Assembly: GCF_964355755.1 (NCBI RefSeq)
Contig: NC_092672.1
Location: forward strand, 10,106,001-10,170,000
Source of the DNA: Antedon mediterranea
Lineage: Eukaryota; Animalia; Echinodermata
DNA length: 64,000 bases
Direction: 5' to 3'
Shown here one piece after another: positions 6,888-49,194 of the stretch. Positions within the stretch are counted from its first letter, which is position 1; each line of letters starts with the position of its first letter. The notes beneath the pieces are model-generated. The model had not been told where the DNA came from. It ran no database searches and saw only the letters and a program-made list of their open reading frames with translations. The translations under genes and the position numbers were made by a program.

Positions 6888-7007
6888 TTAGGCTTCATAA
6901 TGACCAGGAAAGAAGAACAGTTTTTTGGTAAGCATGGTAACAGGTGCTGGCATCTGTTTGTTACGGCCAGAAGAAGATTCAAATGCACGAGCTACTTTGT
7001 TGTTCAC
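6888..7007 (-). CDS. CASP9: Caspase last coding exon: VNNKVARAFESSSGRNKQMPAPVTMLTKKLFFFPGHYEA*
   Basis: KQMP...LTKKLFF C-terminal caspase motif; tttatag|GTG acceptor; TAA at 6890-6888. Confidence 0.95.
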   Translation of the reverse strand: MNNKVARAFESSSGRNKQMPAPVTMLTKKLFFFPGHYEA

Positions 7008-19000: not shown

Positions 19001-21389
19001 AAAGTAATAAATTTGTGTTTTTTGTTTACATGTATAATAAGCAAATTATCAAAAATATGATTTAGTATAATTAAATGAATTGTTATAATTGGAACTTGCA
19101 CTCCTTGACCATGGTCTTGAATGTAAAGTTCTGTCTACACTATACTAACTAGTTTGACAAAAAAAATGTGATGTTCCCAAATGTGGTAATGATATGACAT
19201 TAAATCATGTCCATATATGGGCACATCACATGTTTTTGTCACATAAAGTTCAGGGCCGTAGCCAGGATCTGTCAAGGGGGGGTTCGCACACTAAGTATTT
19301 TGGTCACCCCCACCCCCATACCTACCCCCCCCCCCCTGGGGTGGGGCCTGAGGCGAAGCAAATTTTGTTAAATGACACCCCTAGATGGCCGGAAAATACA
19401 CTCTCATGCAGCATGCTACCAATGAGCAAAACGATCGTACTTGGACTCGTGGACTATTTAAACGATAACATTTGTTGCCGTATGTTAGATGCGCGTGCTC
19501 TGTGCGGAACCGCCGATTTTTTTATCATTTACTCGATATTTTGTTTTGCGTTCAAGTTCAATGATAACGTACGTCTAGGAGAAGCCCCGAAAAAAGCACA
19601 CTGGGTGAAGGCAAATGCAATTCTTATTATAGCTCTATCAATAATATTTATTTACAGCAATTTGTTGAGGAAATTAAATATGCCAATGTAAATAGGTGAT
19701 ATTGATACATTTGAGTACGTATTGGCTGGTGGTCTAGAAAAAAATAATCGGATGCCATAATGTGAACTACAGTACATGATACCATAGATATTATAGTGTA
19801 AAATATTAATATTCACTATAATCCTCTATGATACATTATACTTCATAGCCACACATAAATACTGATGTATGTCGGAAGGCTATATACTTTATGCATGCTG
19901 CCTGACCGCCAGTGATCTAAACAATTGGTACGCAGTTGTCTGGCGGTGTTCTTTGTACGAATCGTTCGTCCCCCAGCTCGCTGTGAGACGCGTCAATATC
20001 ATGTTACATGCAGGGACCAAACATTTATTTTTCAGGTTAAAATCGGCAATTCATTTGCAACTCTTAGAAATTTACAGACTATATCGCTCGAAGTACGCTC
20101 ATACAGGGAAGAAGGTACTGTATGAGTTATTCCGAACGAGTTTACGAATTTTTTAATTTACGAACAACTTTTTGTACTGTGGGGCACGTATTTGGACGAT
20201 TTTCGGAGATGAGGGTGAGGTATTGGGCATGTCGGGGATGGGGGTTCGCAGTCGGTTAAGGGGGGTTCGCTGTAAAGGGGGGGTTCGCCCGAACCATAAA
20301 AACCCCCCCTGGCTACGGGCCTGAAGTTTGATAGTGTAGACAAGGTTTAAGGCAAGTTTTCTATATAGGATGATTTATAAATGCAGGTCCAGTGTACACC
20401 TGTGTACCTTTAGGAAGTAAGGGGTTGCCCTAATGTAGTGATGCTGTCGCAGTAGACAAATGAGCGCTGTTTGAGGCAGCTGAACACAAATTGGACCTTT
20501 TAGCTATAAGATGGCATTTAGTCCAGTTGCACTTTGAGACAGTGTTATCTATCATTTTTATCAATCAATGTTATTATTATCATCTACATTACCCTCTGAG
20601 ACTTGCGTCGGAAACTTGCGTGTGGGATTAAAATCTCCACTGCCTTCTGCAACACTCTGCTGCACAGGTGGCTTGTCTCCAACACTTGGTTGCATAGGTG
20701 CTTTGGTATCATTTTCAAATTCATAATAGCTTAAATCGTACAATGTATCTTCAGTAAGGTCTGGTATTAAAAGTGTAGCTAGATGGTACACCTCAGTAGC
20801 AAATAACGACTCTGCTAATGCACGGAATGCCTTTGGCCCTTTACGAACAATATCATTTAAGATTGCAGTATTTCGATCAGTTGTTCCATTCATACTCTAT
20901 AACAACAAATTATGAGAAAATATTACAATTTGACTTGTTGTTTGTTTGTTTTTATTATATATTTTACATTCAATTATTTTATAAAATATTTTGAAAACAT
21001 AATACTTTTAATAGTCATGCTATGCCTAGTATCCAGATTATTATGTTGGCATAAATGGTTTTTATACAATCAATTTTTCTCATTTGTCCAATTTTAAAGA
21101 TTGTAGAAAAGTAAAAAAAAAGTGTTAATTTTCTAAAACAATATTGTAGTACAGTTTACTGTATGTTTAGTTTCATTATAAGAGTAACCAGTATTATATT
21201 TCAATATAAGAACACGTATCTTTTGTATTATTATTGGGTTATAAAAACAATCCTACAAACCCGGTATTTTTCATCTTCAGATGTATTAAAAATTTGTCTA
21301 GCCACTAATTCGTTCAAGATATCCATGGGCATATCGCTAACTAATGTTATACGATTCGTTCGCAGAATCTTCTTGTGTGCAGCTTCCAT
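6888..21389 (-). CDS. CASP9: CARD-containing initiator caspase, caspase-9-like, ~453 aa. Eight coding exons: 21389-21261, 20896-20593, 18959-18874, 18026-17859, 16316-16100, 14698-14471, 13126-13017, 7007-6888
   Basis: All junctions are GT-AG and phase-consistent; the exons sum to 1362 nt ending in TAA. N-terminal CARD (MEAAHKKILRTNRITLV...RKGPKAFRALAESL). Large subunit: KPRGKALIVNN, RKGTDVD, catalytic His in VLTHG, Cys in GKPKLFFIQACRG. Linker DETDAIGS. Small subunit: [33 protein letters not shown]...KQMP...LTKKLFF. Caspase-9 rather than caspase-2 is judged from motif resemblance only. Confidence 0.92.
8265..8691. mobile_element. MITE/foldback element with long TIRs and internal 21-bp GGCGGCCG-containing tandem repeats
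   Basis: TACGGAAGCCCGTTCGGGCCACAAGTTAAC...GTTAACTTGTGGCCGAACAGGCTTCCGTA; flanking direct repeat TTTATG; left end duplicated at ~8449. Confidence 0.85.
9094..11219 (-). mobile_element. Non-autonomous TIR DNA transposon (~1.07 kb family), outer copy, interrupted by a second copy
   Basis: Termini CAGGCCCGTAGCCAGG...CCTGGCTACAGCCCTG; 5-bp TSD TAATG (9089-9093, 11220-11224). Confidence 0.92.
9588..10636 (+). mobile_element. Same family, inner copy in opposite orientation
   Basis: CAGGGCCGTAGCCAGG...CCTGGCTACGGGCCTG; 5-bp TSD TGTAT (9583-9587, 10637-10641). Confidence 0.92.
11880..12305 (-). mobile_element. SINE-like remnant (Nin/Deu-domain-like)
   Basis: GGTTCTTTAAAGTGC...CACGGGAC...GTTTATAGTTCTTATCTGAGAAAACT...CCGCTAGGCCA pattern (recognition only). 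Confidence 0.4.
13017..13126 (-). CDS. CASP9: Caspase exon 8: [37 protein letters not shown]
   Basis: Substrate-binding S-W-R and GSWF motifs; ttgttag acceptor; ATG|GTAAG donor. Confidence 0.95.
13565..13735. repeat. Long palindrome, probably a MITE
   Basis: AATAATGAATGTTT...GAATGATGAAAGGTTATATCAAC / GTTGATATAACCTTTCATCATTC...AAACATTCATTATT. Confidence 0.7.
13905..14460 (-). repeat. Degenerate tandem copies of the 3' end of caspase exon 7 in intron 7
   Basis: Repeated variants of cagttgcatagg-ctaaaagcatg-tcactgtggct-aggcagcttaga. One copy translates SKLPSHRNHAFNCAYAAVP versus exon [17 protein letters not shown]. Confidence 0.75.
14471..14698 (-). CDS. CASP9: Caspase exon 7: intersubunit linker and start of small subunit
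   Basis: ORF 14454..14696 (MFDQGVEATDG...[28 protein letters not shown]); CCAG|GTAAG donor. Confidence 0.93.
16100..16316 (-). CDS. CASP9: Caspase exon 6: catalytic His (LTHG) and Cys (QACRG)
   Basis: ORF 16086..16301; tttttag|GAC acceptor; G|GTGAGT donor. Confidence 0.96.
17050..17520 (+). mobile_element. LINE 3' fragment (L2/Rex1-like)
   Basis: RLQRILNKVGRI...DDSNHPLN...RYFNSFVPYSIRLLN C-terminal motif, then T-rich UTR and AATAAA. Confidence 0.7.
17525..17765 (-). mobile_element. SINE-like remnant
   Basis: GGCTTTACGTCCCATCTAAAGGACGAGGCAA...GCCTAAGGATAC resembles common invertebrate SINE cores (recognition only). Confidence 0.4.
17859..18026 (-). CDS. CASP9: Caspase exon 5: start of large subunit, NYTIKSKPRGKALIVNNRNFRSMPLRKGTDVDARQL...
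   Basis: Canonical caspase PRG-x-ALI-NN and R-x-GT-x-x-D motifs; poly-T acceptor; GTGAGT donor. Confidence 0.93.
18406..18690 (+). pseudogene. Inverted, near-identical copy of caspase exon 3 inside caspase intron 4
   Basis: Matches the reverse complement of ~20608-20897 with a 5-nt deletion and few substitutions; flanked by direct repeat CTGGATTTA (18397-18405 and 18691-18699). Confidence 0.9.
18874..18959 (-). CDS. CASP9: Caspase exon 4: prodomain linker (A)WPQKTADEVLQMKMSKGNYTSEMTDSPQ
   Basis: 86-nt exon (tttag|CT ... CAG|GTAGTG) that restores frame between exons 3 and 5. Confidence 0.8.
19251..20323 (+). mobile_element. Third copy of the 5-bp-TSD family, nested in a small palindromic MITE (~19124-20350)
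   Basis: Same TIRs; TSD AAGTT (19246-19250, 20324-20328); host ends TGTCTACACTAT / ATAGTGTAGACA. Confidence 0.9.
20593..20896 (-). CDS. CASP9: Caspase exon 3: CARD C-terminal half plus linker
   Basis: Within ORF 20561..20893; acceptor ttatag|AGT; donor G|GTAATG; phase 1. Confidence 0.88.
21261..21389 (-). CDS. CASP9: Caspase coding exon 1 (gene exon 2): CARD N-terminal half, MEAAHKKILRTNRITLVSDMPMDILNELVARQIFNTSEDEKYR
   Basis: ATG at 21389; acceptor AG at 21404-21403; donor GTTTGT from 21260; phase 0. Confidence 0.88.
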
Positions 21390-27597: not shown

Positions 27598-28524
27598 ACT
27601 TTTCTGGCTGTTTACTTTATCGTTTTGATTTAGCTTTTTGCTTTTTATTTTTGTATCTCCATTGAGATCCAGCCACTGATACCCACAGCATTGTCATTTT
27701 TTTTAGTAATTTGCCTTTGGATTTATATATAATACTGTAAAAGAAATATAACAAAGGGAGCCAGGGTGGAGTCTGAATAAGAGTATAAAACAAAGAAGGT
27801 AGCTTGGTAGAGATATAAACAATTTGGAATGAGACTAAAAAACAGCTTAAATGGTGATTAATATTGAAACTTAAATTTTGGTAGTCAATGGAATAATTTT
27901 ACCGATCTGGGAGTATGTTCCTAATGTTAAGTCCAAAAGGTTTTGTGGTTTTAAGTTGTAATTCTCAGTATTTTTCCTTGTCTTTGCGAGTTTTGTCGCT
28001 CCATTTGACATCATGGTCTATTGCAATAACTCTGAAATTTGCAATCGAGTGACCAGCTGAATTAAAATGTTCGGCTACAGGTTGATCAAGCTTTAATGTT
28101 TTGATAGCTGATCTGTGTTGTGTCATTCTCATACGGAGATGTTTTTTGTTTCTCCGACGTACTGTTTGCCACAAATATTACAGTATATGAGATAAATGAC
28201 GTTTTTGGTTAGACAATTAATTGATTGTCTTATCCGAAATATGCGGCCAGTTTGGTTACTCTTAAATTTTTCAGTAGGCAATTAATATTAATTCGAAACC
28301 GCCCGGCGTGGTACGGCGGAACAGCACTAGTCCTCAGTTGTACGCACGCGCACCAGAGATCAAATTGATACGCCCTCATCTTTCTATATTTTTATTCACG
28401 AGGCGGGATCTCCGAAGAGATACTTTTATATATATAAACACATTAGGCAATGAACATTAATTCGAAACCGCCCGGTGATATACCTACATTTAATTAATTA
28501 ATTTGAAACAATAAAGATGAGGAA

Positions 28525-28620
28525 ATCTGTGAAAATGAGAAAAAGTCGCCCCAACAGAGACTCGAACTCGGACCGCCTGCTTGATATGCAGATGTCCTAA
28601 CCATTAGACCACTGGGGCTT
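28525..28620 (-). mobile_element. tRNA-derived (Asp-like) SINE head or tRNA pseudogene, within a ~370-bp direct duplication (28305-28500 / 28670-28900)
   Basis: Minus strand GCCCCAGTGGTCTAATGGTTAGGACATCTGCATATCAAGCAGGCGGTCCGAGTTCGAGTCTCTGTTGGGGCG with A and B boxes; decayed relatives at ~31550-31615 and ~59085-59155. Confidence 0.65.
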
Positions 28621-29127
28621 TCATGGTATTGTTCAAACTCGATTGGATAGCGACTCTTTAACATTCTCGGCATGGTACGGCGGAACAGCACTAGTCCTCA
28701 GTTGTACACACGCGCACCAGAGATCAAATTGATACGCCCTCATCTTTCAGTATTTTTATTCACGAGGCGGGATCTCCGAAGAGATACTTTTATATATATA
28801 AACACATTAGGCAATGAACATTAATTCGAAACCGCCCAGTGATATACTGAAATTTAATTAATTAATTAATTAATTTGAAATGATACAGATGAGGAAATCT
28901 ATATTATATATATATCTTTTGTAACAAATAATGAAAGGTCTGGTTATTTCTTGCATTTTTAATAAAATACAAAAACTATGCAATTTGTTCATGATTAATA
29001 TGAAAAGATATATATTCTATGATTTAAAAGCAGTTGAGTGACACAAGGCAATGCCTGTATAGCACAACTTAAAATTACTACAGCATTGTTCAACACATTT
29101 CACCTTGGTATCACCTTTATCCGATAC

Positions 29128-32100
29128 TTAATGACGAGCGATGGTGATTGTTGTTACTTTATTCTGCTGGTCTGCTGTTATGTTGCACTCGACTGGAAAT
29201 AAACTTCTGAATGCATCGACACCTAGTGACAATGATTTAAACACTTCATGATCACAAATGAGTTGTTTGCATTCCTTTGTTAATAACACCATATGTTCAC
29301 TGTCGAAGAAAATTCAAAATAGTAAAGTATGAGAACTTTTGAAATAATTTAAACAAGGGTAATGTTTACATTATGAGCGGTCTGAACGGTTTCATTTAAA
29401 AAGTTTAGAAAATTGGTATATTAGAACTCTAGTATTAAAAGTTATCACTAACACCCGTCTGAAACCGCAAAATGGGATGTCACCTAAACCTGCTCAGTAA
29501 AACAATTGGCTACAATCAAATCAATGTTTTCTCTATGTTTATACTATGTCTATGTATGTTGTGAATATGCCCTTTCAAAAGAAAGTGGACAGGTAAATAG
29601 AGAAGGAGCAGGGTGTGGATAAGAAGTTGGTAAGAAGGATAAGAGGTTTATTGAATGATAAACAAATCTGCAATTGTAATATGAATACAGATCATATTTT
29701 TTGTGGTGTTGTTTCAGACTATTTAGTTTACAGAATTAAACTTACACTGTGGGATCAATACCACAGATGATTTGTTTCACAACTTTAATGCTTTTGTCAG
29801 GAGGTTGAGACAGAATCTGTAGCAAAACAAAATTATTATCAATATGTTAAAGCAACATGTACTTCCGGAGCCTGGGTGTAATTACTTTGGGAGACAAGTA
29901 TGTAACTGGAATGTAGCCTAGTTTTAATTATGTTAGTTTAGGTTGTAATTATAATGTAGGTAGTCTAGGATGTACGGTAATTATAATGTAGGTAGTCTAG
30001 GATGTAATTATAATGTAGGTAGTCTAGGATGTACGGTAATTATAATGTAGGTAGTCTAGGATGTAATTATAATGTAGGTAGTCTAGGATGTAATTATAAT
30101 GTAGGTAGTCTAGGATGTAATGTAATTATGTTAGTCTAGGATGTAATTATAATGTAGGTAGTCTAGGATGTAATTATAATGAAGGTAGTCTAGGATGTAA
30201 TGTAATTATGTTAGTCTGGGATGTAATTATAATGTAGGTAGTCTAGGATGTACGGTAATTATAATGTAGGTAGTCTAGGATGTAATTATAATGTAGGTAG
30301 TCTAGGATGTAATGTAATTATGTTAGTCTGGGATGTAATTATAATGTAGGTAGTCTAGGATGTAATGTAATTATGTTAGTCTATTATTAGTTAATTATTA
30401 TAATTAATAAAGAATAGACTAGGTTGTAATTATAATGTAGCCTAGGATCTAATAATATATTATATAGATTAACAAGAACATATTGTAAAGCATCGGGTGA
30501 AATCCTGAATATCAAATAATTAATTTGATACAATAAAGATTACTCTAGTAGCTAGATCAACTATGCACTTTGAGGTCCAGAGAATTTGACTTCAGAAATT
30601 GGTTTAGGATGGTCAAACAATCATTTTTGGCTTGGTTACACAATATTCAGTCTAATGGCACATTTTAGTCAACAATGACTGGAAATGCCATTTCTGACAT
30701 TTGATTCACAACCCAAGGCATGTACAGTATGTATCTCCGTAACTACTGGTCGTAGACACTTCAATTTGCTCTTAAATTGTTTGAAATATACATTTTGTTA
30801 TTTGTTACACATTTTGAAAAATGTTATAAAAGGTCAAAGGGTCAGGGTTATATGAACAAATATAAATAGGTACTTGTATCTTGGCAACCACTGGTCGCAG
30901 CAAGTTAATTTTGGTCTCAAAATGTTCAGAAGGCAGACAATTCAGTCTAATGGGACATTTTAGTCAAAAATAATCAGAAATGCAATTTCTGACCTTTGAC
31001 CCACATACTAGGGCATCTTCATATCTATGTAAGTACTGTTCGTAGAAACTTAAATGTTGTATCAAATTGTTCGAAATATATATATTTAGATTCATTCTAA
31101 TAGAAAATTTGGTTAAATGATGACCAGAAATACTATTAATTACTAATGTTTCAAACAAAAAACATATCTGTATACAACTTATCCTTGGACAGTAATGTTA
31201 TGTAATAACTTATGCTTAAAAATTGTTTCATTATAGGATTTAAAACAAATTTTTGTAATTGTATTTTTGCTTATAATAATGCTAGAAAGTATTGTTGACC
31301 CCCGAGGACGATCAAACATTTTGATAGAAACATCGAGCCCAAGAAGTAACTTACCGAATTCATCCTAATAAACGCCTATTGGTGTTTGGTCTTATAACCT
31401 TTCAACCTGACCTTTTGACCTTTCACCACATTTTCAAAATGTGTAACAAGCCAAAAATGATTGTTTGACCATGCTAAACCAATTTCTGAAGTCAAATTCT
31501 CTTGACCTCAAAGCTCATACAAAAGTTTATCTACAGTAACTACTAGAGTAGATGAGGAAATCTGTGAGAACGAGCAAAAGCCGCCTCAACCAAGATTCAA
31601 ACTTGGAACTTTCTGCTTTAATAATAATTTGAAGAAGTTACCTCTAGGCGTGTAAGATTCGTTGTTTTTAATTCTGGTTTTTGTTTAAACATATCCACTT
31701 CGACATTAGTGAAGAGGAATGTTGCACCATCATGCTCTTCAGTAATTTCATCAGCCTTTTCACCCCAGAGTTTTAATTTAATTGTTGAATTTGTGTTTTT
31801 TAAAACCATATCACGGCGTTGCCAAGGGGTAATTTTTTCTCCAATTTCTTTTTCTCCGATCTGTTTTAAAAAAAAACAAAAAAACATCAGTATAACAGAA
31901 GGTTTGTTAATAGTCTTTTGGAAATATAATATATAGCACCCTCTATAATTTTTCGAAAAATGTTAAGATATTTGCAATTCATTAAAAATATTTTTTAGCA
32001 CAACATGCACCCTCTATGTGTGTTGATATCGTCTTGAAGTTTCAATTTCAACAACCCTGTGAGGAATTAGATATCACATGTTATAATCATTTCGACATTG

Positions 32101-35100
32101 TATTATTAGCGATAATGCCGCAAAAACATCCTCCAGTTACCAAATTTTACCCACCCCAATAGGACAATATCGTGTTCATCGTAATATGCAAAAAAAAATT
32201 CTGAAATAATAAAAAACCCAAAACTTTGATTTATGCGAACTTTTTTATAAACGATAAAATAATTCAAATTGTTTTGCTTTTATTTATTATATATTATTAT
32301 ATATTTACCGTACTGACGCGGGTATAAGCCCATACTCGGGTATAAGCCCACCCCCGACTTTTGACTAATTTTCATGAAAAATGAGGCACTCGGGTATAAG
32401 CCCACCCATTAATTCGAAGATCTACAGTGTGTGTCGTAATACATATTTTTGTATTTGGCGACGTCCATACACCGAATACACCTACCTTTGATCATAACCA
32501 AGCTAGGCTAATATACGCTAGGCCATAAGAGGCCTAGCGGTCCTGTTTTGTTTACACTCCATCGCGGTCGAAGATCGCTTCACACACGACGCTACATACA
32601 AGTCGCCAAAACGGAAAACCACTATTTGGTATCGGCTGCCATAAACAAGCTTATTAAATTTCTTTGGTACATTTCTATTTAACGAACATTGTATACTTGC
32701 TTTTCTGCTTGATAAATTCTTGTTCAATTGATGTTTAAAATAAGATATTCTACGATAAATTACATGAACTATAAGCTTAATTAATAATCGTGTATTTAGA
32801 GGCAACGTCGTACACGTGAGGGCGCTCGCTTGCATGGTGGAAATACACAGTGTACATGTGCAGTTTTTGACGATCTGCATTTTTGGATCCTCGGGTATAA
32901 GCCCACCCCCCAAACTTGACGTGATTTCATGTTCGAGGGGGGTGAGCTTATACCCGCGTCAGTACGGTATATATTCCATAAGAATTTCATATAAGAAAAC
33001 ATAGTTTTAATCATTGAATTGACAAAAAACAGGAATTCCAAAATAGCTGTAATGACGTCACATGACATCATTAATATGCAAATTACCTTTTTTTACTCCC
33101 AACTGTAGACCAACCTTTTGCCCACCACACACCACAAAAATAATTACAAAATTATCTCATTTAGTATCTTTTATGACAGTCAGGGTTCGAAAATCACCCT
33201 AACAATTTGCAAGTATATTTTGTTTTTTTTCTAGTTACAAATTTAATAGTTATAATGTTTGCTGGTTACTATTAATGTATGGTTGGATATTGATATGAAA
33301 TAGTTTGAATGATTTTGGAAAACTGATTGAAAACAAAATAATATTGTAACTTACCATTGTAACTTTTCCTTGGATAGTGACTCGTCTTCTTTTGGGGCTT
33401 CTCACTGCCTCCTCAATGCTCACCTCATCTGGAGTAAAAAATTTGTTCAATTTTTCTTGTGGGATTTCAAAATCATTGTTTCCCCCTTGAAACACCTGTA
33501 AAGTAAAAAAAAGTAGTAATGATTTGAATACAAATTGGTTCAGTAATTTTGGGTGTCTAAATACCAGAGGTAAAGTTCAACTGCACAGTATGTGAATGTG
33601 GAGTTTGACTGCCAGAGGATTTAAGAGAAATCAATAATTAAATGGTAATCATTTACCTTGGATGTTCCTTTTTTAATTATCAATTCCTGTGTGTTTTCTT
33701 TGAAACGTAGTGTTGCATTTGTTACTATTTTGTAGTCATCTTTTGTAATCTTTTTAACAAATGGAACGTTTTTTGCTGATACTATTCCTCGTAAATATTC
33801 TGATTTGTCATTAAAGGCATGAAATTCCCAGTAGGTTCCATGGTCAGCAGGAGGTGTTAAAACATATATGTATATCATTTCCATATACTAAAAGAAAGAA
33901 TTGATCGTTATCAAATCATGTGATCAAATGAACACTGTATCACATTGTACATTGGGTGTGTAGTGTGTAGGAACATTTTTAAGTTAATTTATTTGATCAG
34001 TCACAGAGTCACAGTGCCACATGTTACAGTTACATATTTAAAAAAAAAGTAGAGTGACTCTACAATATGACACGCTCTTCAGGATAGTATTTCATCTGTA
34101 TATTATTATAAGCTGGGTTAAAAACATTCTGTTAGGGTATGTTCAGATCCATGGAGTTATGCTTTCGTATCGCAAGCAATGTCACATTATAATTATCATA
34201 ACTGTAACAGCAAACTAATGCTTTCTTTAGAAACTGAAGAAGTCCAATTTGGGCGAGCATCTGGTATGCAGGTTGGAGGTCAAAATCGTTGATGCATGAC
34301 TTTCATATTGTAAGCATCGTTCGCTAATCTTCTGCCTTGAGATGATGAACGAAAGATCAGTGTTGTAAGAGTAAAGTAATCTTTTCCTGGTTCAAACCTA
34401 TGGAGTTGTACAATATGAAAGCACAACTCCGTAGGTCTCAACAGGCCCTTAGTGTTGGAATCCAGATGAAATTTAAAATTGATCAGATCTCACCCTTGAT
34501 ACATGAATGTGTGTTATGCATTATGAATATTTTGAAGAAAATATAAAAGCCCATGGGCTATTCAAAGGGGGACGTTTGTAACTACAGCAATATGCCCATT
34601 TTTTATAAAAGCCACTAGTACTTAAGGGACACTTTTCCTATACTCACTTTGTCTTGTTGAATTGCAGTGTTTGAAGAAACTAAAGATAAGAGAGAAAAAA
34701 AGTAATGGAAAAATACTGCAATAAAAACATTTTCAAAACAATATCATGAGTAACAATAACAATTTTTAAAATCTGTATGGCCAAACGATAAAAGTATGCA
34801 TTTTGTCAGTTCACCACTGAAGTCCATTTAGAATTAAAGTATGGAGAATACACATTCTTAGCAACTGAAGTTATAGTACTGTACTGTCAAAGACTATCAG
34901 AAAAAAATCGTTGATTGCTTTCTTCTGAACTTATTTCACAGCATACAACAACAACCAAGCCACGGACTGGCCAAACAGCTGAACCAACATAATGAAGCAA
35001 ATATATGAGAGTCTATGGTTGAGGCAGAATTAAGATTTCTTTTTAGGTAAAAATTGTGATAAACCACTGAAATTATCAAGCAAAACTTCATCACAGCATG

Positions 35101-35752
35101 GGTCCCTTAATAACGCACATAGCATAATGTCACTGTGTCGTGATCGTATCCATACACAGTACTGTAGGTAGTTTTTAATACAGTATATTTTGATTACATT
35201 GCATTCACTAAGAGTAACGCATAATTTTGTCTTTTCCCTTAAACAGCAAGTGTGTAGTACACTACATGATCCACTAACTTTTATGTTGGTTCAATAGAGT
35301 TTGCTATGTTTTTCGGAGGTTTGCAGGGTTTAGCAATTAATTTTTAACCAAAAAATGATGTTTTACTCCAAAAATAAGTAGTTAACAAAAACAATTTAAC
35401 ATTAAAAAAAAAATTGAAATATTAGGTGTGTAGTACACTACACGATTCACTAGCTTTTATGTTGGTTCGATGGGGTTTGCTATGTTTTTTCGGAGGTTTG
35501 CTGTGTTTAGCAATACCCCCAGTAAGTTTTGCCAACTTCAAATTATTCTTCAGATTATAGTACAGTTAGAAGTAGTTAACAGGATTACAATGGCAGAAAA
35601 TTCAAAAGAACAACAGTCTTTCTAGATAAATCAAAAAAATTAATAACAGAGCTATGATATACATTACCATCAGCCAAGACTTGTCTTGTGGCATTCCAAT
35701 TTCTACCCCGCTTCTGCAGCACCTTGCTTGTCTCCAACTGGCTGGCTTTCAT
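29128..35752 (-). CDS. Tandem OB-fold nucleic-acid-binding protein (RPA/SSB-like, HIN-200-like), ~316 aa. Exons 35752-35668, 34679-34648, 33887-33657, 33495-33355, 31860-31642, 29816-29746, 29299-29128
   Basis: All junctions are GT-AG with consistent phases (1,0,0,0,0,2); 951 nt, no internal stop. OB signature RRVTIQGKVTMIGE...RRDMVLKNTNSTIKLKLWGEKA...GATFLFTNVEVDMFKQKPELKTTNLTRLE. The two short 5' exons are less certain; an alternative start is Met 33884. Confidence 0.75.
29925..30450. repeat. Minisatellite (TAGGATGTAATTATAATGTAGGTAGTC and shorter variants) in OB-gene intron
   Basis: Directly visible tandem array. Confidence 0.95.
30541..31550. mobile_element. ~1-kb TIR element inserted in a SINE remnant
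   Basis: TACTCTAGTAG...GAGAATTTGACTTCAGAAATTGGTTTAG is inverted at 31440-31550. Confidence 0.7.
32306..32969. mobile_element. Tc1/mariner/pogo-type MITE
   Basis: TACCGTACTGACGCGGGTATAAGC...GCTTATACCCGCGTCAGTACGGTA; TA ends; repeated GGGTATAAGCCCA motifs. Confidence 0.85.
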
Positions 35753-35885
35753 TACTGAAATCATAAAAACTTAACATATAATTTATCTTCAGTGAGGTCT
35801 GATATCTATATAAAGTATGGTTAATTCTGACATAGGCGAGCACAATGCAAAAACCTCGGTACAAATCTGCGCCTTGGATACCTAC

Positions 35886-36210
35886 CTTATCTATCTCAGA
35901 TGTACCGCGAAACGTAGATTTGATAACATTAATTTTCACATCGACGCTATTGTTCCATATTTCTATCTTAGGAAGATATTATAAAGGGTTTTATAGGAAA
36001 TTTTCTGATTTCAATCGGTAAATTTTAACTCTACGCGCAGTAGAAGTAATTTCCGGGTTAACGGTCAGGTGTGTCAATCACCTTGCAAGTTCCCTGCATG
36101 GTTGGTGTCAACCAGGGAGTTGTAAAACAACTCCCTGTTTCAACTAAGTTGGTGCTTGGTGGCGATAGCCATTTTGGTTTTTTGTTTATTTTCGGACCGC
36201 GCGTGTGAAG
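35886..36210 (-). promoter_or_regulatory. Putative non-coding first exon and promoter of the OB-fold gene
   Basis: Donor AAG|GTAGGT at 35886/35885; locally CpG-richer sequence with TTCCGG (ETS-like) and GCCATTTT (YY1-like) motifs. Confidence 0.35.
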
Positions 36211-37093
36211 GTATAGTACTGTAGTACATAAAGATCAAATTAAATATATTCATAAAAAATTGGAGTATTATTGTGGGAAATAATTATATAAAATTACATC
36301 GAGAGAATTGATGATAAGAGCTTTTGTTTAAGATCGAATGAAACCCCGATAGCCGAGTTGTTGAGTAAGCTGCCAGGACTCATGGATGGATACTTCTGCC
36401 CATATTGCAAGCCGTCTAAAAGGTCTTCCTTCTTAGGCCAAAACGACTCACTGTGTTGCGGAATAATATGTATTAACTATACCGATTAGAATGGTATTTA
36501 TTTGAATAAACGCCCGGAACACCTCCCCAATAAAACATCAATTAAAATAATTATCACCACTCTCCTCCCCCCCCCCCCCTCCAATACCATCTAATTAACG
36601 CCCATCCCAATTTATACACACAATATTGTATTATATTTATAACACAATTATACTATTTTTTAGTAGATTTCATCGGACTGTTATCTACAATTTACCAAGC
36701 ATTTGTTATTCTTTTTTACCACTTTTCATATCTACAATAAACACTATACGTAAAACGCTATTAATCATCTAAAACACTGTGAAACAGGTTAGTGAGTAGG
36801 TTTAGTTTTACGAATATCAAAAGCATTTAAATAATGGTAACCGATCGAAATCGTCCAGGCCAGAATGTCCTTCTAAAACTTTTTACCAGAGTCACTATCA
36901 TTCCGAGAACCATGGTCTACACTTCCTAGAGGGGGAGCAAGCGAAGCGAGCTCACCCTCTAGTTAATATAAAGTATAGCTAAATGCTGAGACCCAGTAAA
37001 AACAAATGATTGCCGTTTGGTGGCAGCTAAAGGATTGATGCAACGAAATATAATCCACAGCGATTTAAGATGGTGTTTATTATCTATTATTAT

Positions 37094-37863
37094 CTATAAC
37101 ACCCTGAGACTTCTTGTTGGAAACTTGCCTTCTGCAACACTCTGCTGCACAGGTGGCTTGTCTCCAACACTTGATTGTTTGGTATCATTTTCAAATTCAT
37201 AATAGCTTAAATCGTACAATGTATCTTCAGTAAGGTCTGGTATTAAAATTGTAGCTAAATGGTGCGCCTCTGCAAATAATGACTCAGCTAGTGCACGGAA
37301 TGCCTTTGGCCCTTTATGAATAATATTATTTAAGATTGCTGTATTTCGAGCAGTTGTTCCATTCAGACCCTATAAAAAAAGAAATTATGAGAAAAATATT
37401 ACAATTTGACTTTGGAAATTCATCTGTGCACAAGAGATGATTTCTGTTGTTTTTTTATAACATTTGTTAATATTTTGAAAACATAAAAGACATTCTATGC
37501 CTAGTATCCAGATTAATATGTTGGCATAAATGGTTTTTATAAAATCAATTTTTCTCATTTTTCCAATTTTAAAGATTGTAGCAAAGGAAAAAAAGTGGTA
37601 ATTTCCTAAATTAATTTATAATTTTGTAGTAAAATACTGTATGTTTAGTTTAATTACAAGGTAACCAGTATTATATTTCAATTATTTAAGAACCTGTACA
37701 TCTTTTGTATTATTGGGTTAACAATCCTACAAACCAAGAATTTTTCTTGTTCAGATGGCTTAAAAATTTGTCTGGTCACTAATTCGTTCAAGACATCAAT
37801 GTGCATATCGTTAATTAATGACATACGATTCTTTCGCAGAATCTTCTTGTGTTTAGCTTCCAT
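37094..37863 (-). CDS. CARD-only paralogue of the caspase, ~134 aa (exons 37863-37735 and 37369-37094); possible 5' half of a CARD-OB fusion
   Basis: MEAKHKKILRKNRMSLINDMHIDVLNELVTRQIFKPSEQEKFL|GLNGTTARNTAILNNIIHKGPKAFRALAESLF...KFPTRSLRVL*. Splice sites of the first coding intron are preserved; deletions of 3, 9 and 24 nt are all in frame; no catalytic exons follow. Confidence 0.75.
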
Positions 37864-38679
37864 GATTCAGTAAAATCTGTAAATAAATAATTTAATTCTA
37901 ATTATTATTAATTCACTGAATATTTTAACAAGTTTTATTAGAATGAGTTAACTTTTTGGGAACCTTATTCAATCAATATAATAATATTACCATACAGTTA
38001 GTGTTAATATAGTATAATGATGACTTATGACTTAAAAATACAATAAAAATAATACTGTACAGTATGTGTATAGATTATTCACAATTTGATCACTTAAATT
38101 AAAGAAACACAACAATATTTAAACTCTTCTTCCTACACTTACAGTATGTATTGATCAGTAACTATATTCAGTCAGTATACAGTACAGTACCTAACACCTA
38201 TAATGCCTTTCATTAATAATTATTTAAAAAGTACAAGTCAGTCACGATGAAATCAACTTTGGATGGAGCACTGCTTTTAGATACCGCCTAGGCCTAGATA
38301 CTGTAGGCCTAGGCCTAGTACACGATTATTTTTTTTATACTTTTCTTTTAATTTACTTTTTTTTTAAACCATTTGTTGTAACTGGAATCATTTTAAAAGC
38401 ATATTAGTAATTACAGTAAGTACTGCAAATGTAATCTAGGCCTAGGCCTAGTCCTACCGGCCAATCACTCTTCTCGGCTCGGGGTTAAGCTATGCCTACT
38501 AGCCTACACTAACTAAGTACAGAGGCTAGGCCTAGGCCTACTACTACTACCAACAGGGCCCAGCCCAGACAGGGGTGTCACGAAACCTAAGATCACGAAA
38601 GCTAAGACCCAAGAACTAAGATTACAAATAAACACTATAAATCTAGTATAGACTAATGTATTGATAAAACAGCATTTAC

Positions 38680-38850
38680 CTGGACCAATTCTTTAAAAAG
38701 CAAGCAAATTAGATATAAATTCAACTACTGTATTTTAAAGGATATTTTCTGGCGCGGCTTTGTTGCTTTGTTGCTTTTTCCTTTTCTTTACTCCACTAAC
38801 AGCGCCACCAACCACTAACATTAGTCTTTATGGGACGTCAAAAGGGACAT
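38680..38850 (-). promoter_or_regulatory. Duplicated non-coding exon 1 and promoter of the CARD-only paralogue
   Basis: Homologous to 25694-25860; donor CCAG|GTAAAT intact; GACGTCA site. Confidence 0.5.
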
Positions 38851-39026
38851 TATAATTCAATTGTTACAAGAGTCAAGTGTTGATGGTACTTTATGAATTG
38901 ATACAGTTACTAGCTTAAACAATTCATTTTTGTCTATATTCGTAATGTTCTAATTGTTGTCAAAGATAGTGTAGTTTTTATTATTAGTGTACAAACAATT
39001 TAATAGACAAATTCATTCATTTCATG

Positions 39027-40529
39027 TAGAATTTTGTTGGAGACTGCTAGTGTTATTGCGACTCCTTTAGCCCGTCTATTTCAGAGATGTTTTGACGAAA
39101 ATTATGTTCCTCCTTTATGGAAGAAAGCCAATGTTTCCCCTATTTTTAAAAAAGGATCTAAGAAATCACCGGCAAACTATAGGCCTGTTAGTTTAACTTC
39201 CCATTTTTGTAAATTGATGGAATCTGTCTTGAGGGATGACATTATTGATTATCTTGACTCGTTACATTTACTGAATACATCCCAACATGGGTTCTTGAAA
39301 GGAAGATCTTGTCTGACAAATTTACTAATGTTTCTTGAGAAGGTGACATATGATATTGACCAGGGTTTACCAGTAGATGTAATTTATTTTGATTTCCAAA
39401 AGGCCTTCGACAAAGTTTCTCATGTAAGGTTGATGAATAAAGTTTTGGCTCATGGTATTGAAGGTCCATTTGGCATGTGGATACAAAACTGGCTTAGTGA
39501 TAGATCTCAAAGGGTTGTTGTGAATGGTAGGAAATCTGAGTGGGCCCCTGTTCATAGTGGTGTGCCTCAGGGTTCGGTCCTCGGACCGGTGCTTTTTCTC
39601 ATTTTTATTGATGACATAGATTTTTCCATTGATTCTTCATTGTTGAAATTTGCTGATGACATTAAATTGTTTGGAAGTGTGCGTTCCGAGGTTGATCCTG
39701 AAGTACTACAAAATGATATTGACAAGTTATCACTTTGGTGTCGTGAATCCCTAATGAGCTTTAATAGTAGTAAATGCTATGTCATGCACCTAGGATTTAA
39801 TAATCCGAATCATTCTTATGAACTTGATGGGGTTATCCTAAATGAAGTAACAGAACAAAAAGACTTGGGAGTGATTATTGATAAATCTCTTAAGACTAGT
39901 AAACAATGTGTAGCAGCAGCCAAAACAGCTAATCGAGTTTTAGGTACTATTAAAAGATCCATTAAATATAAATCAGTTGATATGATTAAATCGCTTTATA
40001 TTGGATTAGTCAGGCCTCATCTAGAATTTGCAGTCCAGGCATGGTCTCCTCAACTAAGGAAAGACATTCTTTTATTAGAAAAAGTTCAGAGGAGAGCAAC
40101 TAGGCTACCACCTAGTTTGCATGGCATGCCCTATGCAGATAGGTTAAAAGTTTTTAATTTAACAACCTTAGAAGAAAGACGACACAGAGGGGACATGATT
40201 CAAACATATAATTTTCTTTCTAACAAAGAGGCTATTGATAGTGATTTACTTTTTCAAAAGTCTGAATATACCGCCACTAGGGGTCATAAACATAAATTGA
40301 AAAAGAATAATGCTCGATTAAATTGCCGTAGTCATTTTTTTACCCAACGAGTCGTAAATTCATGGAATGCTCTCCCTGCCACAGTACAGTAGAAGTTGAC
40401 ACAACCATACTATTTAAAAGAAAATTTCAGAAGACGAGGGGGGCTAATAGAGGGCCACGACCGGCCCACCAGCCTCTTGCACCACTCATTTAGAGTGGTG
40501 TACGGTGAGTTACGGTGAGTTACGGTGAG
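39027..40529 (+). mobile_element. 5'-truncated CR1-clade LINE with a long RT ORF (39034-40392)
   Basis: NYRPVSLTS, QHGF, YFDFQKAFDKV, GVPQGSVLGP, KFADD, VRPHLEFAVQAWSP; (TACGGTGAGT)n tail; empty site visible in copy A at ~26020-26035. Confidence 0.95.
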
Positions 40530-40796
40530 ATTACACTTTATTGACTAGAGTATTACATTATACAATATCTTCTTAGCCTTTTTTGATTTATTTTTTTTAT
40601 TTTTAAAAGTTATTCATTATAAAAGTTTTACAGTTAACAAATGCAAACGATGGAAAATAAAATCCATGACAAAGTGACATTACAATGAATATATTTATCA
40701 TTACAATAAACTTCCATGTTCCTAGTTTAGGAACATTGCCAAACTGATCACTTACATAACATTAAAAAAGGAACAGAAAATTGGCATTAAAGTGTA

Positions 40797-41520
40797 ACTC
40801 CATTAATAAATTATACCCATCCATAAAGGTGGTGAGGTCTCAAATATCAATAACTATAGGCCCATCTCCATCTTGCCAACTATTTCAAAACTACTTGAAA
40901 GAATAGTTTATGATCAAACTATTTCATTTCTTACAAAGTTTAACATCCTCAGCAATTCCCAGTTTGGTTTTCGTTCCCAACATATCTACAATACATGCCG
41001 TCCATCATTCAATCCATAATATTTTGTCTGCTATTGATAATAAACAATTTACTGTAGGAGTTTTTATTGACCTGTCAAAGGCTTTTGATTGTATTTCTCA
41101 TAATATTTTAATTAACAAGCTACGTTTCTATGGTATAAGAGGTATACCACTTCAGTGGTTCGAAAATTATTTAAGTAACAGCCAGACATCAATTTACATC
41201 AACAATCAATGATATTGCCTCTGAGCTGCGGCCAGTTTCGTGTGGTGTTCCACAGGGATCCATCCTTGGTCCGCTTTTATTTCTGTTATTTATTAATGAT
41301 TTAAATTGTATTAGTGATTGTGCTGAAATTGTTATGTTTGCAGATGATACAAGTTTATTTATTAATCATAAGGACATCTACCAAGCTATTATTTTAATGA
41401 ATCGTGAACTTACTAAAATTGCAAACTGGTTAAAATCTAATAAGCTTTCGTTAAATATTAAAAAAACCAAATTTATTATTTTTCGTTCAGTAAATAAACT
41501 AATCCCCCCCCAACATTCCT
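40797..41520 (+). mobile_element. Frameshifted LINE reverse transcriptase fragment
   Basis: NYRPISILP, FIDLSKAFD, GVPQGSILGP, MFADD. Confidence 0.9.
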
Positions 41521-41571
41521 AAATTTATAATTCGGTTACATTTAGGAATATATTTAGTTATTACCATAATA

Positions 41572-42010
41572 GATTCAATCAATCAATCAATCAATTCAAT
41601 TTTATTTCTCAAATAAAAACAAAATACAGTTACATTTTCTAGAAATAATAGATAATAAATGAGAAAAAGGGTACCCCACTGGAAGCTTAAGCTTTAAAAT
41701 GTGGGGTCCAGGCAACATATTTAAAATTAAGGTAAGGTAAGAAATATATATAATTATATGATAATGAACAAAAAAGACATTTAACTTAACAAATGCAGTT
41801 ATAATTTAACTTAAGACAGATATATTATTAACTTAAACAAAAATAGTAGAAACAAGGTATTCATGTAATTTGAACTTAAATGAAGATATAAAATTAATAA
41901 TTTTGAGTTCTTCAGGTAAAGAATTCCATATTTGTGGTCCTTGAAAAGATATATCATGCTTGCCAACCTCCGTATTAAAACAATCATAAGCATAATCTAA
42001 TTTATTTCTG
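41572..42010 (-). mobile_element. LINE 3' end in inverted orientation with (ATTG)n tail
   Basis: (TCAA)n microsatellite and a GPQIWNSLP motif on the minus strand. Confidence 0.6.
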
Positions 42011-43924
42011 GTATTATAAATTATAAATATTTTATTTTATAATCATAAGCTTGTTTCAAATCCTATATAAATAATCTCGATTTTCTTTGATGAGTTCAAA
42101 ATACGCGCACACATTTTCGAACGGTATGAAATCATTCGGAAATTAAATGTTCATATAAAAATAATAGTAATATCAAATTATGTAAATAAATGATTCACAT
42201 CTTTGCCTAAAAAAAAAAAATAGTTTAGGCCTACTGTTTTTTATAAATTCAAAAGCAAATGAGTAGTGGAGTGGGTGGATCTCGAATACAAATAAAATAT
42301 ATTGCATGCCAAAAATAATAATAAATTGCAGGCCTTACTCAGTATGAGTGTTTATAATAATACAGTATATATATTTAACACCACCCCAGCCACCCGCTCC
42401 ACTTCTGCAAAATGAGGAAAAAATAATGTTTTCTACACCCAACCTGTACTCAGAAGACACGTTTGAGTGTGCCAAATGGTTGATTCAGAGGTCACCAAAA
42501 ACATCAAAACATTTTTATTTATTTATTTTGTTATCTATTTAATACAAAAATGGATATCATGATAATTATGATAATAATTATGATACTTCCTCTGGCTTGA
42601 CAATGACAGTTTTCATGGTGAAACACTCAGAATGAACCCCTTTAAAAATAATTGGGTGCTGCAGGATTTACTGATTTTCAACAACTTACAAACACAAACC
42701 AAAAACCTATTCCTAATACAAAATAGTATTTTGGTTTTTCGTTCCATTTGGAGTAATGAAGGCTGTTGAAATTATTCAATTAATTAATTAATTTAAAAAA
42801 TAAAATATTTGTATATGAAGAAAAACATCCAATAAAAATGTTTTTAAAATTTTCTTCAATAATTATATTTTACATTATAGTAAAATGATTAATAGTAACT
42901 ATCTCTAATGGTTTGCTTCTTTGCACTATCCTGTGGTGTATGAAATGGCAAAACTGCATTTTGTAAACATGGCAACATCACCAGAATACATTAAGTACAA
43001 AATACTGTACAATAAAACTAATTACAGAGCTATACTGGCAGGATAACTTAATTTTAAAAATATAATATTTGTATCTGAAGATCAACATGAACATTTCTCA
43101 TCCAATAAAAATGTTTTTAAAATTTGCTTCAATAATTATATTATTTACATTATAGTAAAATAATTAATAGTAATTAATACTATCTCAATGGTTTGCTACT
43201 TTAAACTATCCTGTGATGTATGAAATGGCAAAACTGCATTTTGTAAACATGGCAACATCACCAGAATACATTATTGCAGTAAAGTACACTACTGTACAAT
43301 AACATTACTAAACTAATATTACAGAGCTAGACTGGCAGGATAATTTAATTCAACAAAAAACATGGCAATTTTTTAGAATCTTTTCTTTTAAAACATAACC
43401 TGTACATAAAAAAAAACTAAACATAATTAAGCGTTTTCATTACAACACAAGCATCTAGAAACAGCGATAATGTGTATCTAGTGCGGCGGCCCATACAAAT
43501 TAGCGCGACTAAAATAAAACATGACTGATATCAACCGTAACTAATATGATAAAAAGCGTATCTAGCTAATGCTGGACTGAAATGTCCTGTATTTGTCTGC
43601 CTCTCCCGGCCCCACCCTTAGATCTGTTTGTATGTTTCCTACAATGCTTACATACATAAGCACTGAATCAATATTGATATAAATCTTTTGTAAAAATAAT
43701 GAAAGGTTCTATGGTATTTCTTGCATTTTTAATAAAACGAAAAAACTATGCAATTTGTTCATGATTTAGTATGAAAAGATATAATCTATAATTTAAAAGC
43801 AGTTGAACAATACAACACAACTTAAATTGATTACAACATTCCCAGTGTTTTAGTGGATACACGTTCCTATAAGGTATTGTGCTCTTGTTGTTGCCCATAA
43901 CAGGAAAAGCAATCCACTGAAACT

Positions 43925-45826
43925 TAATGACGAACGATGCTGATTGTTGTTACTTTAGTTCTGCTGGTCTGCTGTTACGTTGCACTCGACTGGAAATAAA
44001 CTTCTGAATGAATCGATGCCTAGTGACAATGATTTAAACACTTCATGATCACAAATGAGCTGTTTGCATTCTTTTGTTAATAACACCATATGTTCACTGT
44101 CGAAGAAAATGAAAAATAGTAAAGTATGAGAACTTTTGAAATAATTTAAACACGGGTAATGTTTACAGTATGAGCGGTCTAAAAGTTTCATTTAAAATGT
44201 GTAGAAAATTGGTATATAAGAACTCTAGTATTAAAGATGTATTGTTCCTAAAAACACAGAAAATGAAGATTAATATAAAAACATCTACAAAATTACAAGA
44301 TAAAATTATCTTCTTGACTTCCTGTTGTACTGGATGATACCGGAGGGAATAAAGGATTTAGCAAATCGATTTGTTTTCACACTGAGGAGCCTCAATCTAC
44401 CACTTGGATTAAGTTGGTCTATGATCACTTTGTGCAGAGGATGAGAGGCATGCGTTCAAAATCTTTCTGGAGGCGTTCTATGTGCACATCGGTAAAGAAA
44501 GGCAGTTCCAGACCAATCAAATCCCAATTGGCTGCTGACAGCCAATTTTACCATTTTATGGTTTAAATTACACTTGTTTTTAAGGTAAATATATATTTTT
44601 TTTTCGATCTAATTTTTTGTAAAAGTGAATAACTATTATTATGTAACAATAAAATTGCTTATTCAACAAAAAAAATTTTTTTCAGGGGGACAATACATCT
44701 TTAAAAGTCTATCCACAACACCAATATGAAACTGCAAAATGGGACATCACCTAACCTGCTCAGTAAACTTAGATTTACATAAAGCAATTGGCTACAACCA
44801 GATGGATGCTTTCTATATGCTATTGTGAATATGCCCTTGGAATTCTTGTAAAGTGTAAACACATAAATAGAGGAGCAGGGCATTGATAAGATCATATATG
44901 GCAAACAGGTAGCTGTAGCAATGTTTTAAACACTTTATGAACACAAAGAACTCTAGAATTAAAAATGTATTGTTCCCCAAAAACATGGAAAATAGGCCAT
45001 TTGCAGCTTTAATAGGGTATTGCTAAACTGCGCAAACCTAAAAAAACCTGCGCAAACCTCCTCCAAATCACTTATTATTGGTTCTATCATGACAAGGACT
45101 ATCATAGCAAGTAATTAATGAAAAAAAAAATGAGGAGGAGGTTTGCGCAGGTTTTTTTTCAGGTTTGCGCGATTTACACTGTAAAATCTGACATTTTACC
45201 CAAAAAAATGATGGTTTTCGCCAAAAAAAAAAGCCAACTTACAGCAATTTCATAATTTTGTTTTCATAAATTATTTGCTATGATAATCCTAGTCATGATA
45301 GAACCAATAATAAGTGATTTGGAAGAGGTTTGAGCAGGTTTTTTTTAGGTTTGCGCGATTTACACTGTAATATCTGACATTTTTACCCAAAAAATGATGT
45401 TTTTCGCCCCACTTACAGCAATTTCATAATTTTTTTTTTCATAAATTACCTGCTACGACAGTCCTGGTCATGATAGAACCAATAATAAGCCATTTGGAGG
45501 AGGTTTGCACAGGTTGTTTTTTAGGTTTGCGCTTGGTTTGCGTAGTTTAGCAATACCCCTTTAATAAAATTAATCACTTTAGTTGAAAAAAAACACTTTG
45601 TTTTCAATAATAAAAAGACAAAATAAACAGAAGAGGATTATTGAATGATTATTGAATGAATGATAAATAAATCTGCAATTGTAATATAAATACAGGTCAT
45701 ATTGTTTGTATCATTGTTTCAGACTACAGTATTTAGTTTAGCGAATAAAACTTACACTGTGGGATCAATACCATCGATGTTTTGTTTCATAACTGGAATG
45801 TTTTTGTCGGGTGGTTTAGACAGGTT
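43925..45826 (-). pseudogene. 3' remnant (last two exons, 45826-45756 and 44096-43925) of a second OB-fold gene copy
   Basis: Paralogous to 29816-29746 and 29299-29128. A 1-nt insertion gives a premature TAA at 43955. Upstream exons were not found; LINE sequence starts after ~46630. Confidence 0.75.
45013..45560. mobile_element. TTAA-flanked TIR MITE (Kolobok-like) with ~170-bp internal repeats; related remnant at ~35250-35520
   Basis: GGGTATTGCTAAACT...AGTTTAGCAATACCCCT flanked by TTAA. Confidence 0.75.
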
Positions 45827-45944
45827 CTGTAGTACAGTAATTGCAAGCAAAACAAAATTATTATCAATATGTTAAGGAAACGTGTACTTCGGGAGCCTGG
45901 GATGTAATTACTTCGAGAGAAAAGAATGTAACTGTCTAGAATGC

Positions 45945-46630
45945 AGCCTAGGTTTTAATTATGCTAGTCTAGGATGTAATTATAATGTTAGTCTAACATG
46001 TAATTAAAATGTTAGTCTAAGATGTAAATTATAAAGTTAGTTTAGAATGTTTATAATATATAAGTCTAGGATATAAATATAATGTTGGTCTAGGTTGTAA
46101 TTATAATGTAGGTAGTCTAGAATGTAATTAAAATGTTAGTCTAGGTTGTAATTATAATGTTAGTCTATGTTGTAATTATAATGTAAGTAGTCTAGGATGT
46201 AATTATGTTAGTCTAGGTTGTAATTATAATGTAGGTAGTCTAGGATGTAATTATAATGTAAGTAGTCTAGGATGTAATTATGTTAGTCTAGGATGTAATT
46301 ATAATGTAGGTAGACTAGGATTTAATTATGTTAGTCTAGGATGTAATTATAATGTAGGTAGTCTAGGATGTAATTATGTTAGTCTAGGTTGTAATTATAA
46401 TGTAGGTAGTCTAGGATGTAATTATAATGTAAGTAGTCTAGGATGTAATTATGTTAGTCTAGGTTGTAATTACAATGTAGGTAGACTAGGATTTAATTAT
46501 GTTAGTCTAGGATGTAATTATAATGTAGGTAGTCTAGGATGTAATTATAATGTAGGTAGTCTAGGATGTAATTATAATGTAGGTAGTCTAGGATGAAATT
46601 ATGTTAGTCTAGGTTGTAATTAAAATGTAG
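45945..46630. repeat. Paralogous minisatellite in duplication copy B
   Basis: Same unit and same position relative to the OB exon. Confidence 0.95.
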
Positions 46631-49050: not shown

Positions 49051-49194
49051 TAAATAAAATACTACCTAACTTACAAATACTGATTCAGAATCCTTATTAC
49101 CTTCTCTTCATGATGATACAAAATTTGACTATGTAGTATGAAGGTAGGTTGCAAAATCTTTACATTCTGTGCAGGATATTTTTGCACTTGTGTG

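Follow-up and report, generated by a model that had tools for sequence, protein, structure and literature searches.

A decayed caspase exon as the likely linker of a predicted CARD–OB hybrid gene in the crinoid Antedon mediterranea

The stretch of DNA analysed here (hereafter the window) covers 64 kb of contig NC_092672.1 of the crinoid Antedon mediterranea, and all of its genes lie on the minus strand. A gene coding for OB folds sits upstream of a CARD-caspase gene, which fits the annotated protein P0002 (453 aa, with the motif QACRG; recorded name caspase-7-like, Antedon mediterranea) with exons running from 21389 to 6891. Among solved structures the caspase CARD is best matched by those of caspase-1, CED-3, RAIDD and caspase-9, all of them weakly (E of 0.03 or more). 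Self-comparison of the window reveals a duplication of about 10 kb, in which 20641-30457 corresponds to 37126-46630. The newer CARD exon copies are intact and lie 1.4 kb upstream of an exon of 87 nt, which is the main subject of this study. A first-pass annotation, made from the letters alone, had described this small exon as the first coding exon of the OB gene and as a decayed copy of the 3' end of caspase exon 3.

The motifs on which that description was built were found on the minus strand where it had placed them, and an alignment of 35660-35760 with 20585-20700 gave a score of 188, which none of 2000 dinucleotide shuffles reached (mean 78, maximum 137). The 87-nt exon and caspase exon 3 also end at the same phase-1 donor, which for exon 3 was confirmed through the annotated caspase, which reads QVSE before this junction and AWPQ after it. 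When 2548 tiles of the window were compared with the 87-nt exon, the four highest-scoring ones represented caspase exon 3 and an inverted copy of it (score 110; tile mean 43); an unrelated 29-nt match at 11253-11282 scored 106 and the newer exon 3 copy 100. The 29-nt match (plus strand) shows 26/29 identity to the end of the 87-nt exon with flanks that are unlike, and is probably due to chance.

The homology was found to extend past the exon, about 50 nt upstream to 35805 (blastn, 35758-35805 against 20718-20767; 0/2000 shuffles), an extension that had gone unnoticed before. The likeness continues into the present intron until a repeat is met, and the old copy therefore comprised at least 140 nt of exon 3 together with its donor, the present acceptor having arisen within old coding sequence. 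In the intron on the 3' side, homology to the caspase was not significant (183 and 281 of 2000 shuffles). Within the exon, the first half is read in a shifted frame and the last 14 codons in the caspase frame, which is restored by a 1-nt insertion near 35710; the earlier suggestion that caspase sequence had been exonised partly in a new frame is thereby borne out. We regard the homology of the 87-nt exon to caspase exon 3 as near certain.

This exon is older than the duplication that is now visible. Of 143 aligned sites, 28 differ between it and the caspase (p-distance 0.196), as compared with a divergence of 0.061-0.125 in seven neutral blocks taken from the newer duplication. In a four-way alignment the caspase and the newer copy are joined by 23 sites, the old exon and the caspase by 12 (an inflated count, as these sites fall mostly where the newer copy is deleted or poorly aligned at its 3' end) and the old exon and the newer copy by a single one. 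A 24-nt stretch lost from the newer copy is kept in the old exon, which stands as the outgroup to caspase exon 3 and the newer copy. The greater divergence, the site patterns and the retained stretch therefore indicate an earlier copy, and no by-product of the newer duplication.

A second piece of the caspase was recognized in the 32-nt exon of the OB gene, for which caspase exon 4 ranks first among 496 acceptor-like sites (score 140; next other site 111; mean 57), with 0 and 1 of 2000 shuffles reaching the score under two gap settings. The two differ by a p-distance of 0.245, the caspase frame is retained, and the donor of the 32-nt exon leads in phase 0 into the first true OB exon (33887-33657). 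Likeness to the caspase is not significant in the intron before it (133/1000 shuffles) and weak in the intron after it (7/1000 shuffles). With this second caspase-derived exon an older caspase/OB chimera is well supported, and we consider it highly probable that one existed. Since the two exons keep the order that they have in the caspase and share the frame of the OB domain, a coding CARD-OB chimera is the simplest reading of the older state. The proposal that caspase/OB chimerism predates the visible duplication thus stands, on the divergence, the site counts (23 versus 1) and the second exon alike.

The newer CARD copy suggests that the CARD-OB fusion may be alive, and not merely ancestral. 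Its N-terminal exons match the CARD family, with 68 of 92 residues (74%) identical to the caspase CARD. They carry indels of 3, 9 and 24 nt and no frameshift before 37129; the frame shifts just past the donor found there. In the neutral blocks 51 of 63 indels are not multiples of three, so that about nine frameshifts would be expected in 370 nt over both lineages, or about 4.5 for one lineage (P near 0.01 by our own arithmetic). The presumed caspase promoter and the exon-1 donor are conserved in the newer copy. The old GT donor of its exon 3 has decayed, and the GC donor at 37129 is the only GT/GC site in 37060-37200 with at least 6/11 consensus matches (it scores 8); its 8-mer occurs twice in 128 kb.

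Through this donor, exons of the two parent genes share one open, phase-compatible frame: nine exons, all of them open and with AG acceptors and GT/GC donors, join into 440 codons encoding CARD, linker and OB folds (411 codons without the 87-nt exon), and the family profile of the OB part covers residues 165-436 of the 440-aa model. As the 87-nt exon is of phase 1 at both ends and a multiple of three, the CARD reads into the OB folds with or without it. Its description as a first coding exon is therefore less well founded than its homology: the sequence gives no proof of it, the symmetric exon fits internally behind the intact CARD copy, and its ATG (35752) is inherited caspase sequence that is out of frame there. 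We find a role as first coding exon unlikely, and the exon is probably internal.

We therefore favour, with a probability of roughly 0.55, a reading in which the 87-nt exon represents a decayed fragment of caspase exon 3 and is likely an internal linker exon of a predicted 440-aa CARD-OB hybrid, putatively DNA-binding and caspase-recruiting. The existence of a living CARD-OB splice form, taken by itself, is likewise slightly favoured.

Two further features of the newer copy are worth recording. Its exon 2 (37735-37863) differs from that of the caspase by 17.5 non-synonymous and 1.5 synonymous changes; the ratio of their rates (dN/dS) is 3.2, which is not significant, and offers a lead that the CARD surface may have diverged adaptively. 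Reverse-transcriptase-like open reading frames (39007-40389 and 40810-41519, both on the plus strand) are inserted immediately before the duplicated promoter region, on its upstream side, about 170 nt from a TGACGT site that is kept in both promoter copies; judging from their motifs, we take them to be of the LINE type.

The OB gene is annotated as the 154-aa protein P0001, with which three OB exon junctions agree. The Met with which this annotation begins, near where exon 33495-33355 ends, falls within the second OB fold, so that the first strand of this fold is left out (strand 115-125 in the model of the relative P0004) and the gene model looks incomplete. P0001 has 26 relatives besides itself; the ten that were looked up include proteins of Anneissia, Apostichopus, Holothuria, Lineus and Priapulus. 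Full-length relatives measure about 270-280 aa, and their residue 1 aligns with the Met at 33884. A death-fold family was found neither in a family scan of the 26 relatives, a search that was not exhaustive, nor in the 5 matches (137-282 aa) obtained from 4527 candidates in an equally non-exhaustive profile search of proteins of 39-494 aa, nor among the structure-atlas matches listed. As the relatives found are without a CARD, the fusion looks lineage-specific and the CARD a local gain, as far as these searches reach. Descent of the OB gene from an ancestral CARD-OB fusion, which had been offered as one explanation, accordingly finds no echo in the family: in another crinoid, in sea cucumbers, in a nemertean and in a priapulid the relatives lack a CARD and start at the position of the Met in exon 33887-33657.

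These relatives include P0004, P0032, P0035, P0024 and P0028, which form an unnamed invertebrate family of triple-module OB proteins of about 270 aa with a conserved SP[K/A/R]K[K/R]R-like motif. The SPKRRR motif of the window presumably resembles a nuclear localisation signal. In the models, the tandem folds of the family resemble HIN domains.

The model of P0004 (mean predicted local distance difference test, pLDDT, of 81) contains two OB folds and a third module. A Foldseek search with it placed HIN domains on top (p204, E 9e-10), with baculovirus LEF-3 and RPA close behind, and a wide structural search gave a tie between Teb1 (Z 14.3), HIN (14.2 and 14.0) and RPA70 (13.6), in which HIN chains were the best rows spanning both OB folds (Z 14.2, root-mean-square deviation 6.0, 176 aligned). 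By sequence, the HIN family was detected neither in the four OB exons scanned, which are short, nor in 28 proteins. The family is nearest to archaeal SSB (Sulfolobus SSB profile match, E 0.002), and its second OB fold matches REPA_OB_2 below or near the cut-off. When the family is aligned with Sulfolobus SSB, an invariant Trp falls on W56 and a Phe close to it on F79, W75 not being kept; W56 and F79 are named as aromatics that bind single-stranded DNA in excerpts of PMC8954794. From the modelled folds we infer that the hybrid protein might bind single-stranded or foreign DNA, cluster CARDs that are 74% identical to that of the caspase, and recruit the caspase or, as a decoy, restrain it. By analogy with AIM2, a DNA-sensing caspase recruiter can be predicted here, tentatively and as a rather unlikely outcome.

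Table 1. Features of the locus, with their positions in the window and the basis of each assignment
Feature	Position	Strand	Basis
CARD-caspase coding span	6891..21389	-	Match to annotated P0002, 453 aa, QACRG
Caspase exon 4, donor of the 32-nt OB-gene exon	18874..18960	-	P0002 match, shuffles, tile scan
Caspase exon 3, donor sequence	20593..20896	-	P0002 match
Last OB exon, with stop	29128..29299	-	Frames, P0001
OB exon, start of third module	29746..29816	-	Frames, P0001
OB exon, core of second OB fold; REPA_OB_2 below cut-off	31642..31860	-	Family scan
OB exon encoding the connecting helices, the SPKRRR motif and the initial strand of the second OB fold	33355..33495	-	Alignment, P0004 model
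OB exon carrying the first OB fold; its Met (33884) corresponds to residue 1 in the stand-alone family	33657..33887	-	Family alignment
32-nt exon: copy of the 5' portion of caspase exon 4, acceptor included; two deletions (3 and 6 nt), both in frame; GT donor newly formed from caspase coding sequence	34648..34679	-	Shuffles, acceptor scan, alignment
87-nt exon: decayed 3' half of older caspase exon 3 copy; phase 1 at both ends; new acceptor within old coding sequence, old donor retained	35668..35754	-	Alignment, frames, splice sites
Further old exon 3 sequence, now intronic, with 2-nt deletion	35755..35805	-	blastn, shuffles
High-copy interspersed repeat, masking the junction of newer duplicate and old exon 3 copy	35805..36963	-	Run X2 depth
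Read-through tail: stop 37096-37094, AATAAA at 37081, giving a 134-aa CARD-only product	37076..37128	-	Frames
Upstream unit of newer duplication, spanning the final two OB exons, intergenic DNA and exons 1-3 of the caspase	37126..46630	-	Match to 20641-30457
Newer caspase exon 3 copy: second half of CARD and linker, open; ends at phase-1 GC donor from 24-nt deletion	37129..37369	-	Alignment, splice sites
Newer caspase exon 2 copy: ATG at 37863, first half of CARD, open	37735..37877	-	Frames, alignment
Copy of presumed caspase promoter and non-coding exon 1 (exon inferred); donor retained at 38680	38643..39026	-	Self-comparison, site comparison

Several observations weigh against the CARD-OB hybrid. 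The frameshift test is weakened because indels are less frequent in coding DNA than in AT-rich introns; one exon in three is expected to be symmetric by chance, and of the 14 AG sites that precede the donor, 3 yield an open stretch whose length is divisible by three; GC donors are rare. Between the two CARDs dN/dS is about 1 (87 codons), and the substitutions therefore give no sign of purifying selection. Read-through of the GC donor gives a 134-aa CARD-only frame with AATAAA 12 nt past its stop, which also accounts for the kept frame. The annotated OB-gene protein consists of the last 154 aa only, and a query with the newer exon 3 against proteins of 141-2000 aa matched the caspase alone (1 of 74 candidates), with no annotated fusion. 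No RNA covering the CARD-OB joint was found, and no run on record as RNA contains the stretch. As for the fold, the HIN match belongs to the relative P0004, at 8-16% identity and with a Z tied with those of Teb1 and RPA70; the model of P0001 itself (pLDDT 86, without the first fold) puts RPA70 and Teb1 first and p204 HIN fifth; and the net charge of the two OB folds is only +2.

One sequencing run, X1, is RNA by guess only, and its lack of cover says nothing on expression: it leaves the 87-nt exon, the joints of the 32-nt exon and exon 33887-33657 without cover and contains no splice joint. A single X1 contig (depth 2.5) spans just 33358-33493, with 10 changes in 136 nt and 65 unplaced letters. 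Six of its seven listed changes alter an amino acid, and it is possibly a spliced paralogue or a divergent allele.

Some of these points would suit a locus with two products, a possible reading to which we give limited weight. The newer CARD copy would then yield a 134-aa CARD-only regulator of the caspase, translation of the OB gene would begin with the ATG that the 87-nt exon contains (316 aa) or with the family Met at 33884, and the old chimera would be a fossil. The read-through frame is open, its AATAAA has no equivalent at the caspase counterpart, the ATG at 35752 is in frame, an annotated fusion was not found, and CARD16, CARD17 and CARD18 beside CASP1 offer a precedent (excerpts of PMC11630849). 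However, AATAAA occurs 236 times in 128 kb, so that a nearby copy is weak evidence; the OB gene would require its own promoter and an upstream exon, neither of which was identified; so strong a GC donor would have to be coincidental; and the ATG is inherited from the caspase. It is also conceivable that the two kinds of product meet, as CARD-only and CARD-OB forms could be isoforms of one gene.

A silent or decaying state of the CARD copy and of the OB gene's 5' half, in which the 154-aa annotated product alone is made, or nothing, seems to us quite unlikely. Such a state would agree with the start of the annotation at the Met at the end of exon 33495-33355 and with the CARD dN/dS near 1, and a stop-free frame survives 4.25% random substitution in 48% of cases. 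It sits poorly with nine open exons that have AG acceptors and GT/GC donors, with a CARD copy that lacks frameshifts, and with a 154-aa form that opens inside the second OB fold, without its first strand. That the likeness to exon 3 is itself a product of chance or of a shared repeat is very improbable. The DNA is AT-rich, the alignment has many gaps and the unrelated 29-nt stretch scores nearly as high against the exon alone, but this reading is largely refuted by the shuffles and the tile scan; moreover two exons follow in caspase order, and three DNA runs from one sample show this segment to be single-copy (depth 135 for contig 35463-35836 in run X2).

Under the CARD-OB hybrid that we prefer, the locus may have been assembled in steps. 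Part of the 5' end of the caspase gene, up to and including exon 4, would have been copied to a place before a stand-alone OB gene, and the copy would have been spliced to it in frame via the new exon 4 donor, a history that the observed homology suggests. The later 10-kb duplication, itself observed, would then have set a fresh caspase promoter and exons 1-3 before the 3' half of the old exon 3. As the splice signals and frames suggest, the fresh exon 3 would have lost its GT donor and gained the GC donor, and the old half-exon would have acquired an acceptor and the 1-nt insertion, remaining a multiple of three. In the resulting protein the tandem OB folds would putatively bind single-stranded or foreign DNA and cluster the CARDs, which would recruit the caspase CARD without an adaptor.

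The repeat between the newer and the old exon 3 copies reaches a summed contig depth of up to 630,000 in run X2, versus 130-200 in single-copy bins, with loose ends at 36963. It carries a terminal hairpin (36926-36962) and shows head-to-tail joints in the same run, and its ends resemble those of non-autonomous rolling-circle elements. An initial suspicion of microhomology at the duplication junction was abandoned, as the 45-nt segment on the left of the repeat matched three sequences almost equally well: caspase exon 3 (86), the end of the repeat itself (73) and caspase intron 3 (71). A 17-nt direct repeat was rejected as a target-site duplication because its right copy falls inside the high-depth element.

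Other copies and repeats are found elsewhere in the window. In caspase intron 4 lies the inverted copy of exon 3 (18404-18691, plus strand; 2 mismatches in 288 aligned); within the pre-mRNA, this copy and exon 3 could base-pair with each other across exon 4. Caspase exon 3 thus occurs four times within 20 kb. In the upstream copy of the last two OB exons (43967-45826, minus strand) the stop of the final exon comes 10 residues early. The tile scan of the window gave no further copy of the OB 5' exons or the CARD exons within 46600-64000. The intervals 9094-11219, 19243-20323, 51650-52274 and 61827-62840 contain copies of a 1.1-kb repeat, present in two introns of the caspase, as well as other tandem and inverted repeats.

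The layout predicted from the genes, a death-fold domain followed by a linker and tandem OB folds, is likewise that of AIM2, IFI16 and other PYHIN proteins, and in the models the two OB folds of P0004 align with PYHIN HIN domains over their whole length. Unlike PYHIN proteins, the predicted hybrid has an N-terminal CARD copied from its target caspase, as the match of its N-terminal exons to the CARD family indicates, and no pyrin domain; it also gave no HIN profile match in the four OB exons scanned, has SSB-type aromatics that suggest single-stranded DNA, carries an extra C-terminal module and would be of independent origin. According to excerpts of PMC3458909, HIN domains are reported only in mammals and have little sequence likeness to other OB folds, and excerpts of PMC9334734 report no PYHIN orthologue in Aplysia.

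CARD16, CARD17 and CARD18 likewise arose by repeated partial 5' duplication of a CARD-caspase beside its parent, with a CARD close to that of the caspase (excerpts of PMC11630849). In contrast to these, the copies described here precede an unrelated OB gene to which they can be spliced in frame, and the CARD has been refreshed by duplication, the old copy being left as a linker exon. The OB fold is shared with RPA70, archaeal SSB and Teb1 (REPA_OB_2 and the SSB profile by sequence, RPA70 and Teb1 by fold); the family here consists of unnamed invertebrate proteins of about 270 aa that are distinct from RPA70, and the predicted N-terminal CARD is unique among the relatives found. Exon joining of adjacent genes after duplication is described as the main route of domain gain in animals in excerpts of PMC2926785; what differs here is that two rounds came from one donor gene, the second replacing the first CARD. 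No invertebrate CARD-OB fusion appears among the papers listed by a literature search, and the excerpted text of PMC6723221 is silent on it.

Going by the models, the locus might encode a crinoid AIM2-like DNA sensor that joins the CARD of the caspase to HIN-like tandem OB folds and recruits the caspase directly, its CARD renewed by a second duplication and its first CARD exon now serving as linker; we offer this as a speculative proposal of low probability. If true, it would be an independent invertebrate route to DNA-triggered caspase activation. Whether or not its product is a sensor, the locus documents how a domain was gained twice from a single donor gene, with new splice sites inside old coding sequence, and it draws attention to an unnamed invertebrate OB family.
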